Positions 13,857-18,029 of a DNA stretch of 64,000 nt are shown here, in pieces (position 1 is the stretch's first letter; the number at the start of each line of letters is the position of its first letter). The notes under the pieces were generated by a model, which worked only from the letters and a program-made list of their open reading frames with translations, made no database searches and was not told the DNA's origin. The position numbers and the translations under genes were made by a program. Source of the stretch: Escherichia coli (GTDB taxonomy: Bacteria; Pseudomonadota; Gammaproteobacteria; Enterobacterales; Enterobacteriaceae); assembly GCF_051903065.1 (NCBI RefSeq), contig NZ_CP178438.1; one strand, written 5' to 3'.

Positions 13857-15296
13857 ATGTCAGTACCCGTTCAACATCCTATGTATATTGATGGACAGTT
13901 TGTTACCTGGCGTGGAGACGCATGGATTGATGTGGTAAACCCTGCTACAGAGGCTGTCATTTCCCGCATTCCCGATGGTCAGGCCGAGGATGCCCGTAAG
14001 GCAATCGATGTAGCAGAACGTGCACAACCAGAATGGGAAGCGTTGCCTGCCATTGAACGCGCCAGTTGGTTGCGCAAAATCTCCGCCGGGATCCGCGAAC
14101 GCGCCAGTGAAATCAGTGCGCTGATTGTTGAAGAAGGGGGCAAGATCCAGCAGCTGGCTGAAGTCGAAGTGGCTTTTACTGCGGACTATATCGATTACAT
14201 GGCGGAGTGGGCACGGCGTTACGAGGGCGAGATTATTCAAAGCGATCGTCCAGGAGAAAATATTCTTCTGTTTAAACGTGCACTTGGCGTGACTACCGGC
14301 ATTCTGCCGTGGAACTTCCCGTTCTTCCTCATTGCCCGCAAAATGGCTCCCGCTCTTTTGACCGGTAATACCATCGTCATTAAACCCAGTGAATTTACGC
14401 CAAACAATGCGATTGCATTCGCCAAAATCGTCGATGAAATAGGCCTTCCGCGCGGCGTGTTTAACCTTGTTCTGGGGCGTGGTGAAACCGTTGGGCAAGA
14501 ACTGGCGGGTAACCCAAAGGTCGCAATGGTCAGTATGACAGGCAGCGTCTCTGCAGGTGAGAAGATCATGGCGACTGCGGCGAAAAACATCACTAAAGTG
14601 TGTCTGGAATTGGGTGGTAAAGCACCAGCTATCGTAATGGACGATGCCGATCTTGAACTGGCAGTCAAAGCCATCGTTGATTCACGCGTCATTAATAGTG
14701 GGCAAGTGTGTAACTGTGCAGAACGTGTTTATGTACAGAAAGGCATTTATGATCAGTTCGTCAATCGGCTGGGTGAAGCGATGCAGGCGGTTCAATTTGG
14801 TAACCCCGCTGAACGCAACGACATTGCGATGGGGCCGTTGATTAACGCCGCGGCGCTGGAAAGGGTCGAGCAAAAAGTGGCGCGCGCAGTAGAAGAAGGG
14901 GCGAGAGTGGCGTTGGGTGGCAAAGCGGTAGAGGGGAAAGGATATTATTATCCGCCGACATTGCTGCTGGATGTTCGCCAGGAAATGTCGATTATGCATG
15001 AGGAAACCTTTGGCCCGGTGCTGCCAGTTGTCGCATTTGACACGCTGGAAGATGCTATCTCAATGGCTAATGACAGTGATTACGGCCTGACCTCATCAAT
15101 CTATACCCAAAATCTGAACGTCGCGATGAAAGCCATTAAAGGGCTGAAGTTTGGTGAAACTTACATCAACCGTGAAAACTTCGAAGCTATGCAAGGCTTC
15201 CACGCCGGATGGCGTAAATCCGGTATTGGCGGCGCAGATGGTAAACATGGCCTGCATGAATATCTGCAGACCCAGGTGGTTTATTTACAGTCTTGA
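13857..15296 (+). CDS. aldA: Lactaldehyde / glycolaldehyde dehydrogenase (NAD+)
   Basis: 479-aa ORF; aldehyde dehydrogenase motifs ELGGKAP and catalytic-Cys region GQVCNCAER. Confidence 0.9.
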   Translation: MSVPVQHPMYIDGQFVTWRGDAWIDVVNPATEAVISRIPDGQAEDARKAIDVAERAQPEWEALPAIERASWLRKISAGIRERASEISALIVEEGGKIQQLAEVEVAFTADYIDYMAEWARRYEGEIIQSDRPGENILLFKRALGVTTGILPWNFPFFLIARKMAPALLTGNTIVIKPSEFTPNNAIAFAKIVDEIGLPRGVFNLVLGRGETVGQELAGNPKVAMVSMTGSVSAGEKIMATAAKNITKVCLELGGKAPAIVMDDADLELAVKAIVDSRVINSGQVCNCAERVYVQKGIYDQFVNRLGEAMQAVQFGNPAERNDIAMGPLINAAALERVEQKVARAVEEGARVALGGKAVEGKGYYYPPTLLLDVRQEMSIMHEETFGPVLPVVAFDTLEDAISMANDSDYGLTSSIYTQNLNVAMKAIKGLKFGETYINRENFEAMQGFHAGWRKSGIGGADGKHGLHEYLQTQVVYLQS

Positions 15297-15306
15297 TGAG
15301 TGAAAG

Positions 15307-15330
15307 AGGCGGAGGTTTTTTCCTCCGCCT
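15307..15330. terminator. Bidirectional rho-independent terminator between aldA and gapC
   Basis: Perfect inverted repeat AGGCGGAGG-TTTTTT-CCTCCGCCT. Confidence 0.8.
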
Positions 15331-15337
15331 GTGCGCG

Positions 15338-16339
15338 TCAGAGTTTAGCGAATTTTTCGAGGGTGCGAATAAGCTGCGTGACGAAGCCATATTCGTTATC
15401 GTACCAGGCGACCGTTTTCACCAGTTGTAAATCGCCCACGGCGGTAATTTCCGTTTGCGTGGCATCAAACACCGAACCGAAATGGCTGCCAATGATATCG
15501 GAAGAGACTATTTCTTCATCGGTATAACCAAATGACTCGTTATTGGTGGTTGCTTGTTTAAGTGCGTTATTCACCTCTTCGGTAGTCACTTTTTTTCCGA
15601 GAATGGACACCAGCTCAGTGACCGAACCTGTTTTCACCGGTACGCGTTGCGCATGACCTTTCAGTTTGCTGCTCAGTTCCGGTATCACCAGACCAATGGC
15701 TTTTGCCGCCCCCGTAGTGTGGGGAATGATATTTTCTGCCGCGGCGCGTGAAGCACGTAAATCTTTACCACGCGGGCCATCCACCAGTGACTGGGTGCCA
15801 GTATATGCATGAATGGTCGTCATCGTGCCGACTTCTATCCCGAAACTGTCATGCAAGGCTTTGGCCATCGGCGCAAGACAGTTAGTAGTGCATGATGCCA
15901 CGGAAACAATGGTGTCGTTGCTATCCAGAGTGTCGTCATTGACGTTATAAACGATAGTTTTCATTTCACCGGCAGGGGCGGAAATCAACACCTTCTTCGC
16001 GCCAGCATCAAGATGCGCCTGCGATTTCTCGGCGGAGGTATAAAAGCCAGTACATTCGACAATGATTTCTGCACCTTTCGCTTTCCACGGAATATTTTTA
16101 GCCTCTTTTTCGGCGTAAACCGCGATACTTTTCCCATTAACGATAAGTGAATCTTCCGTAAAATCAACGCTCCAGGGGAACGGTCCGTAGTTTGAATCAT
16201 GTTTCAGCAGGTAGGCGAGAATTTTTGGAGAAGTGAGATCATTAATAGCGACAACGTCTATGTTGCTTTTGACTTCAAGTAATCGACGCAACACCAGTCG
16301 ACCGATACGACCAAAACCGTTAATACCAACTTTACTCAT
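15338..16339 (-). CDS. gapC: Glyceraldehyde-3-phosphate dehydrogenase, apparently intact
   Basis: Uninterrupted 333-aa ORF; NAD-binding INGFGRIGR and active-site [10 protein letters not shown]. Confidence 0.85.
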
Positions 16340-16527
16340 GGTTTTCTCCTGTCAGGAACGTTCGGATGAAAATTGATCCTTTCCAGGCTTAGACCAGGAT
16401 GGCGGGATGGGCAATCTCCATTCTTACAGTGAAACGTAACGTACTGAAAACGGGTGAACAATATTTAATGAAATTTTGAGAAAAGCCCGTTATGTTAACG
16501 GAAAATTATGTTAAAGCAGGAAATGTT

Positions 16528-17058
16528 ATGGAAAATAAATACTCAAGGTTACAAATCGGCATTCACTGGCTGGTCTTTTTGCTGGTTATCGCAGCGTGTT
16601 GCGCAATGGAGTTTCGTGGTTTCTTCCCACGTAGCGATCGACCGCTCATCAACATGATTCATGTTTCCTGTGGCATCTTAATTCTCGTGCTGATGGTGGT
16701 TCGTCTTTTGTTAAGACTGAAATACCCAACCCCGCCGATTATACCTAAGCCGAAACCGATGATGACGGGACTGGCGCATTTGGGACATTTGGTGATTTAT
16801 CTCCTGTTTATTGCGCTGCCAGTGATTGGTTTGGTGATAATGTATAACCGGGGCAACCCGTGGTTTGCGTTTGGTTTGACGATGCCTTACGCTTCAGAGG
16901 CCAATTTCGAACGGGTAGATAGCTTAAAGTCGTGGCATGAAACGCTGGCGAATCTGGGATATTTTGTCATCGGGTTGCACGCTGCGGCTGCACTGGCACA
17001 CCACTATTTCTGGAAGGACAACACACTTCTACGCATGATGCCGCGTAAACGTTCCTGA
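16528..17058 (+). CDS. cybB: Cytochrome b561
   Basis: 176-aa multi-TM ORF from internal ATG (MENKYSRLQIGIHW). Confidence 0.85.
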   Translation: MENKYSRLQIGIHWLVFLLVIAACCAMEFRGFFPRSDRPLINMIHVSCGILILVLMVVRLLLRLKYPTPPIIPKPKPMMTGLAHLGHLVIYLLFIALPVIGLVIMYNRGNPWFAFGLTMPYASEANFERVDSLKSWHETLANLGYFVIGLHAAAALAHHYFWKDNTLLRMMPRKRS

Positions 17059-17302
17059 AGGATATTTAAAGAAAACGCCTGTACTAAAACCGACCCGTGG
17101 TACAGGCGAAGAATACGGGTCTACATCGGAAGCGCCTATTATATTTATTTGTATGATAAATAAAACCATAATCCTTGCCCATACGTCCATCTGGCTTATT
17201 TTTAATCAATTCACCCGATCTTTGATCTCATCAACGGTATCAAAATAAACCAGCGTATAACGTTCAAATCGCACATAAGATTCGATAAACCATGGAGGTT
17301 AT

Positions 17303-17547: not shown

Positions 17548-17697
<150 letters not shown>

Positions 17698-17760
17698 AGC
17701 CTTTCTCCTTGCCGGATGGCGGGTAAGAGGCTAACATCTGAATTGCTTGGTTCATTCGTT
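17698..17760 (+). ncRNA. sokB: Candidate sokB antisense RNA region (antitoxin of hokB)
   Basis: Inferred from hok/sok locus organisation (antisense to the mok/hok leader); boundaries not determined. Confidence 0.3.
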
Positions 17761-18029
17761 GGCCTCGGTTGATAGAAATATCGGTCGGGGCCTTCGTCTT
17801 TCTGATTCCCGGTTAGCCTGAAAACAGAAAGTCTCAGGCACCCGTGAGCATCCTATGTGGTTTCCTTAGGGACGAAAATAATCACCTGACGAAATTGCGT
17901 GCTGTTTTCCAGAATTTTTCGTCATTCGGGTTAGCCAGTTTAACCATTCGTTACTCTCTTCATTCCAATGGCATTAATCTTCTCTGCAATAATTGTTGTA
18001 AAAATGTGACGCAAAGAGGCTTTTAGTCG

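Follow-up and report, generated by a model that had tools for sequence, protein, structure and literature searches.

The gene at positions 15338-16339 on the minus strand of the 64,000-nucleotide stretch of Escherichia coli DNA analysed here (hereafter the window) is almost certainly a normal, ancestral and intact E. coli gapC, which encodes a bacterial-type, NAD-dependent phosphorylating type I GAPDH. The coding sequence runs uninterrupted from an ATG start through 333 codons to a TGA stop; no in-frame stop was found within it in either the six-frame list of open reading frames or the raw sequence, and alignment to the K-12 gene likewise revealed no internal frameshift or stop in the window copy, such that the single open frame of 333 amino acids proposed in the initial annotation holds. 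A Shine-Dalgarno sequence, AGGAG (16346-16350, minus strand), lies 6 nt 5' of the ATG and is kept in 13 E. coli loci. As in K-12, the gene is convergent with aldA (aldehyde dehydrogenase; 13857-15296, plus strand) and divergent from cybB (cytochrome b561; 16528-17058, plus strand), an arrangement that recurs in Citrobacter and identifies the gene as a member of the gapC orthologue group. Nothing was found against either the identity or the intactness of gapC, and the caveats discussed below concern the function of the window allele. The stop codon of the neighbouring aldA (15294-15296) is TGA in the window; of the 12 further E. coli loci in the alignment, 9 have TAA and three have TAG. This stop-to-stop change is private to the window lineage and harmless.

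Profile comparisons place the protein firmly among the type I GAPDHs. It scored 446.6 bits against the NCBIfam type I GAPDH model TIGR01534 (cut-off 367.2), an equivalog-level match in which residues 3-325 align to positions 1-330 of the 330-position profile, and both Pfam domains are present (Gp_dh_N, 123.9 bits; Gp_dh_C, 192.4 bits). The NAD-binding motif INGFGRIGR occupies residues 6-14, where the Rossmann signature GxGxxG is found as G8-F-G10-R-I-G13, and the catalytic-Cys motif occupies residues 148-157; both are intact, as had been read from the sequence at the outset. Identities of the Epd/GapB and ArsJ types were rejected given scores under the NCBIfam cut-offs: the protein reached 275.1 and 280.6 bits with the Epd/GapB models TIGR01532 and PRK13535 (cut-offs 530.55 and 539, respectively) and 304 bits with the ArsJ-associated GAPDH model NF033735 (cut-off 450), and the neighbouring genes are aldA and cybB, not arsJ. 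The score for the GapA-type model PRK15425 was also below its cut-off (298 bits; cut-off 662). The exact protein is already in NCBI, where it is found on 181 public contigs; it corresponds to the 'gap' coding sequence WP_047624947.1 of E. coli ECNB21-M121, in which the gene itself is identical, and it falls within a cluster of 4,797 E. coli GapC sequences formed at 90% identity.

The K-12 copy of this gene is disrupted, as the initial annotation had stated. The orthologous 'gap' coding sequence of K-12 ER3413 is annotated as a pseudogene ('frameshifted; internal stop'), and in our alignment the K-12 and window genes show 20 differences over 1,002 nt, two of which are lesions of the K-12 copy that are absent from the window. 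Codon 39 (16223-16225, minus strand) is AAA (Lys) in the window and TAA in K-12, and a run of seven A at gene nt 744-750 (15590-15596, minus strand) is shortened to six in K-12, a 1-nt loss that shifts the frame; the other 18 differences comprise 13 synonymous changes and 5 replacements. As Lys39 is found in all enterobacterial orthologues checked, the K-12 state is derived. In our preferred reading, K-12 shares with about a fifth of the sequenced strains a single derived haplotype that combines the nonsense codon 39 with the -1 frameshift in the A7 run, and the window lineage, for which ECNB21-M121 is the nearest genome, never acquired these lesions. The K-12 pseudogene (gapC_1/gapC_2, b1417/b1416) was reportedly described by Hidalgo et al. 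in 1996.

The initial annotation had also proposed a non-K-12 lineage, and this holds: the window aligns collinearly with K-12 over 49.2 kb at 98.36% identity, gapC being no more divergent than its surroundings, and is 99.94% identical over 49 kb to ECNB21-M121, an isolate from meat in Zhejiang. By itself, however, an intact gapC counts for little as evidence of such a lineage, since the K-12 lesions are absent from about 80% of complete E. coli genomes. With a 1.3-kb query, the gapC locus was found in 5,417 of the 5,426 complete E. coli genomes, the median number of places per genome being one and the maximum 2, and nucleotide identity to the window locus was 95.4-100% in 5,407 genomes. Alleles were counted using allele-specific 30-mers in megablast, which reports only near-exact matches; the A6 allele was counted in place of A7, as the BLAST low-complexity filter would mask an A7 query. 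The K-12 TAA allele of codon 39 was detected in 1,153 of the 5,426 genomes and the AAA 30-mer in 3,388, while the A6 frameshift allele was detected in 1,049. The double-lesion haplotype of K-12 is therefore present in about 1,050-1,150 genomes (roughly 20%), natural isolates included, and carriers of the TAA allele extend beyond laboratory strains to isolates from river water, frog, chicken, pig, mastitis milk and humans. Neither codon-39 30-mer matched the remaining ~876 genomes, a result consistent with alleles that carry synonymous SNPs inside the 30-mer; such SNPs were present in three sampled intact loci, those of O157 (nt 129), AR13438 and C4 (both nt 133).

All five TAA loci sampled also carry A6 and are annotated as pseudogenes by NCBI, and the eight loci sampled from other haplotypes all have the full 1,002 nt uninterrupted, with A7 retained; the intactness of these other haplotypes rests on the 8 loci together with the alignment spans in a systematic sample of 39 rows. 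Losses of other kinds also occur. SCPM-O-B-7615 (NZ_CP144926.1, 1022-3199) has IS1A in place of the 3' four-fifths of gapC and the terminal part of aldA, which constitutes an independent loss, and the gene of TW01221 has a further 1-nt loss. The 41-kb locus of EcN_Sk (NZ_CP172017.1), a strain labelled EcN, has the K-12 gapC haplotype within more than 30 kb of sequence whose proteins bear K-12 accessions; either recombination or the origin of the strain as a laboratory hybrid could account for this block. At this locus hokB, trg and hicB are truncated.

The initial annotation further suggested that the product may be a functional second GAPDH, and the residues of the active site are consistent with this view. 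We compared the protein to 98 diverse GAPDH representatives drawn from a 1.8-billion-protein library. The catalytic Cys150 (codon at 15890-15892, minus strand) is Cys in 97 of the 98 and is essential in an enzyme identical at 329 of 333 residues (PMC8615399), and the catalytic His177 (codon at 15809-15811, minus strand) is conserved in 97 of the 98. The protein also has Arg11, Ile12, Asp34, Ser120, Ser149, Thr151, Thr180, Thr182, Arg198, Thr209, Gly210, Arg232 and Asn315; with Cys150 and His177, each of these is the majority residue among the representatives, except Thr182 (Asp in 58 of 98). The phosphate site (Thr180, Thr182, Arg198, Thr209-Gly210 and Arg232) is thus complete, as is the NAD-specifying Asp34.

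Structures and kinetics are available in the literature for a close counterpart of the window protein. PDB entries 7C5F, 7C5H, 7C5P, 7C7K and related mutants, deposited as 'EcGAPDH1', match it at 329 of 333 residues. The accompanying paper names Thr180, Thr182 and Arg232 as Ps-site residues and Arg11, Ile12, Asp34, residue 78, Ser120 and Asn315 as NAD-binding residues (PMC8615399), and every NAD- and Ps-site residue named there is found in the window protein. EcGAPDH1 has a Km(G3P) of 0.73 mM and a high turnover; its activity is lost in C150A and drops 10^3 to 10^4-fold in C150S and H177A (PMC8615399). The words 'gapC' and 'strain' are both absent from the text of this 2021 paper. In the corresponding reaction, Cys150 of GapC would form a thiohemiacetal and then a thioester with His177 serving as the base, hydride would pass to NAD+, and phosphorolysis would yield 1,3-bisphosphoglycerate. 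Pairwise dN/dS among eight intact E. coli gapC alleles is 0.01-0.11, which indicates strong purifying selection and thus selection for GapC function in the species. Together with the characterised 329/333-identical enzyme and the retained active-site residues, this supports a functional second GAPDH, a role that for this particular allele is predicted from its sequence; we infer that the window allele is active and expressed.

Expression would be driven from the divergent intergenic region between gapC and cybB (16340-16527), the predicted location of the gapC promoter. The region upstream of gapC differs from K-12 at 2 of 161 aligned nt, and in a scan of positions 15000-16700 promoter-like sites were no more frequent than in shuffled sequences. 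An Rfam scan of the whole window gave no hit within the gapC locus; elsewhere it placed the RydC small RNA (RF00505, 92.5 bits; gathering score 48) at 17069-17132 on the minus strand, directly downstream of cybB, and the sok antitoxin RNA (RF01794, 111.5 bits) at 17692-17843 on the minus strand, which belongs to the type I toxin-antitoxin pair hokB/sokB, located between cybB and trg. Published data bear on expression in other strains. In K-12, ChIP-seq of sigma-S RNA polymerase shows a peak between gapC and cybB (PMC4447067), gapC_1 is among the regulated genes in a K-12 study of RpoS and cAMP-CRP under carbon limitation (PMC4512719), and in EPEC the gapC transcript has been detected, at a lower level in a csrA mutant (PMC6333774). 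A passage in a paper from Espinosa-Urgel's group, citing Espinosa-Urgel and Kolter 1998, states that environmental isolates have an intact gapC, whose expression is favoured in fresh water (PMC2949598). The O157:H7 GapC has a UniProt entry, and gapC serves as an E. coli qPCR marker (PMC10614358).

At the opposite end of the gene, a GC-rich hairpin with a perfect 9-bp stem and a T6/A6 loop, AGGCGGAGG-TTTTTT-CCTCCGCCT (15307-15330), lies within the 41-nt gap between the convergent stops of aldA and gapC. The minimum free energy of a 61-nt segment that contains it is -26 kcal/mol on the plus strand and -19 kcal/mol on the minus strand (z about -4), and the stem is invariant across 13 E. coli loci. 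Beyond the stem the sequence reads GTGCGCG on the plus strand and CTTTCACTC on the minus strand, with no canonical T-run on either of them, and the hairpin was not among the hits of a consensus promoter and terminator scan of positions 15000-16700. The earlier description of gapC as bracketed by a strong bidirectional terminator is therefore correct as to a strong and conserved hairpin but overstated otherwise, as the T-run is lacking and the structure is found on the 3' side of the gene only. It may well be the shared transcript end of aldA and gapC, a putative terminator role suggested by its structure and placement.

The position of the gene in other genera bears on how the window came to carry it. 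Outside E. coli, the closest GapC relatives are those of E. albertii (96%) and Citrobacter (89%), and the proteins of Trabulsiella, Klebsiella oxytoca/grimontii, Yokenella and Kluyvera are 86-88% identical. The Citrobacter order hrpA-ydcF-aldA-gapC-cybB is the same as that of the window, and the Klebsiella order is ydcF-aldA-gapC; this conserved synteny indicates that gapC is ancestral at the locus and that the intact gene represents the ancestral state. An E. albertii contig (3281-5852) has the order cybB-gapC-ydcF, with aldA apparently missing from the locus. A review nonetheless terms gapC 'laterally acquired' (PMC1796617), and among solved structures from outside E. coli the best matches of the window protein, at about 400-480 bits, outrank its matches to the E. 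coli GapA type, with GapA itself only 46% identical. These observations could be taken to mean that gapC is a foreign gene recently acquired by the window strain through lateral transfer, but this reading is not supported and we regard it as highly improbable. Besides the synteny shared with Citrobacter and Klebsiella, which refutes it at a recent time-scale, the gene is also present in E. albertii, it sits at one place per genome in nearly all complete E. coli genomes (5,417 of 5,426), and divergence from K-12 near gapC (1.6-1.9%) is no different from the mean over 49 kb of the window (1.64%). Synteny and uniform divergence together imply that any transfer of gapC predates the split of Escherichia, Citrobacter and Klebsiella. 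Identity of at least 99% is reached by only 50 genomes, and a recent transfer or a locally imported divergent segment was rejected as the explanation for this, again given uniform divergence over 49 kb and cross-genus synteny. An even less credible possibility is that the open frame is an artefact of assembly or sequencing, for example a homopolymer miscall that restored A7. The site of the frameshift is indeed a homopolymer, a classic hot-spot for errors; however, the K-12 nonsense codon is also absent from the window, and this is a substitution rather than a matter of homopolymer length. Moreover, an independent complete genome has the identical gene, the exact protein recurs on the 181 contigs, and A7 is present in all 8 intact loci sampled, such that the artefact is effectively refuted.

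A scenario that deserves more weight, although it is still unlikely, accepts the open frame and holds that gapC of the window lineage is under relaxed constraint, and is either impaired or heading towards a pseudogene, with G224S and other replacements lowering its stability or activity. Compared with seven other intact alleles, the window gene has seven private changes, three synonymous and four replacements (D68N, G140S, G224S and A253T), and all four replacements are G to A changes at the first codon position. The resulting ratio of replacement to synonymous changes is 4:3 on the window branch, against 9:60 in the other intact alleles (Fisher p = 0.014), a post hoc comparison on seven sites and hence small numbers. 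Codon 224 (15668-15670, minus strand) is AGC (Ser) in the window, whereas the 12 further E. coli loci in the alignment, 7 of them intact and 5 pseudogenes, have GGC (Gly), and Gly is found here in all orthologues checked; among the 98 diverse GAPDHs the position is Gly in 91 (93%), Asn in 3, Asp in 2 and Ser in 1. The private replacements, G224S included, therefore hint at relaxed constraint or impaired stability, and the repeated loss of gapC elsewhere in E. coli, through the K-12 haplotype (~20%), the IS1-associated deletion in SCPM-O-B-7615 and the extra 1-nt loss in TW01221, would accord with such a course. Nevertheless, the catalytic and ligand-binding residues of the window protein are all intact; N68 and S140 occur naturally in orthologues, whereas S224 and T253 occur in none of those checked, although Asn, Asp and Ser are each seen at position 224 in other GAPDHs. 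The presence of the exact protein on 181 contigs further indicates that the allele persists in a successful clone. A broader proposal, which we hold only tentatively and rate slightly above the preceding one, is that gapC is caught in a process of repeated loss across the species, in which the K-12 haplotype is a natural polymorphism (~20%, in humans, livestock, frogs and river water) rather than a product of laboratory domestication, and the window lineage may be in early decay or undergoing a functional shift. The reading we prefer remains that of an ordinary, intact gapC.

Several features elsewhere in the window were also recorded. An IS1 copy is present at 58169-58938, where about 6 kb is missing relative to ECNB21-M121. 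In that genome the segment carries a truncated tssI/VgrG, a PAAR gene and ISAs1, along with genes for an M35 peptidase and a C39 peptidase-domain protein, and its absence from the window points to a deletion associated with IS1. In turn, ynbB, which is interrupted by an IS1 in ECNB21-M121, has no such insertion in the window. An orphan type VI secretion cargo island lies at ~53031-57713 on the plus strand and, by the annotation of ECNB21-M121, includes PAAR, Vgr-family (715 aa ORF) and M23 metallopeptidase (695 aa ORF) genes. At ~28855-30492 an IS200/IS605 remnant retains an intact insQ/TnpB-family gene beside a frameshifted, truncated tnpA, in the same place as in K-12 according to annotation correspondence.

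These results make K-12 the exception at the gapC locus, as most E. coli encode a second bacterial-type GAPDH, one that K-12-based metabolic models and knock-out collections ignore. Intact gapC is already known from literature since 1996-1998 and from UniProt, RefSeq annotation and the PDB, and the enzyme type has been characterised both structurally and kinetically; our additions are modest, and consist of the census that finds the K-12 haplotype in roughly one fifth of complete genomes and the unusual G224S replacement in the allele of the window lineage. Among known systems, the GapC of non-K-12 strains (UniProt P58072, O157:H7) is the product of the same gene at the same locus, with the O157 allele differing from that of the window by about 5 replacements. 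EcGAPDH1 (PDB 7C5F and others; Zhang et al. 2020/2021) shares with the window protein the catalytic Cys150/His177 pair and the NAD and phosphate sites, and is set apart from it by the four lineage-private substitutions of the window. The K-12 gapC occupies the orthologous locus between aldA and cybB, with 98.2% nucleotide identity over the 1.3-kb query and the same 3' hairpin, but has TAA at codon 39 and A6, neither of which is found in the window. Epd (GapB), the erythrose-4-phosphate dehydrogenase, is a homologous E. coli enzyme of the GAPDH fold to whose family the window protein does not belong. The housekeeping glycolytic GAPDH of E. coli, GapA (PDB 1S7C, 1DC4, 1GAD), has the fold family, the motif SCTTNCLAP and the reaction in common with the window GapC; the two are nevertheless paralogues encoded at different loci, with the 46% identity noted above (the GapA sequence used for comparison is 100% identical to PDB 1S7C), and GapA fits the PRK15425 model whereas the window protein does not.
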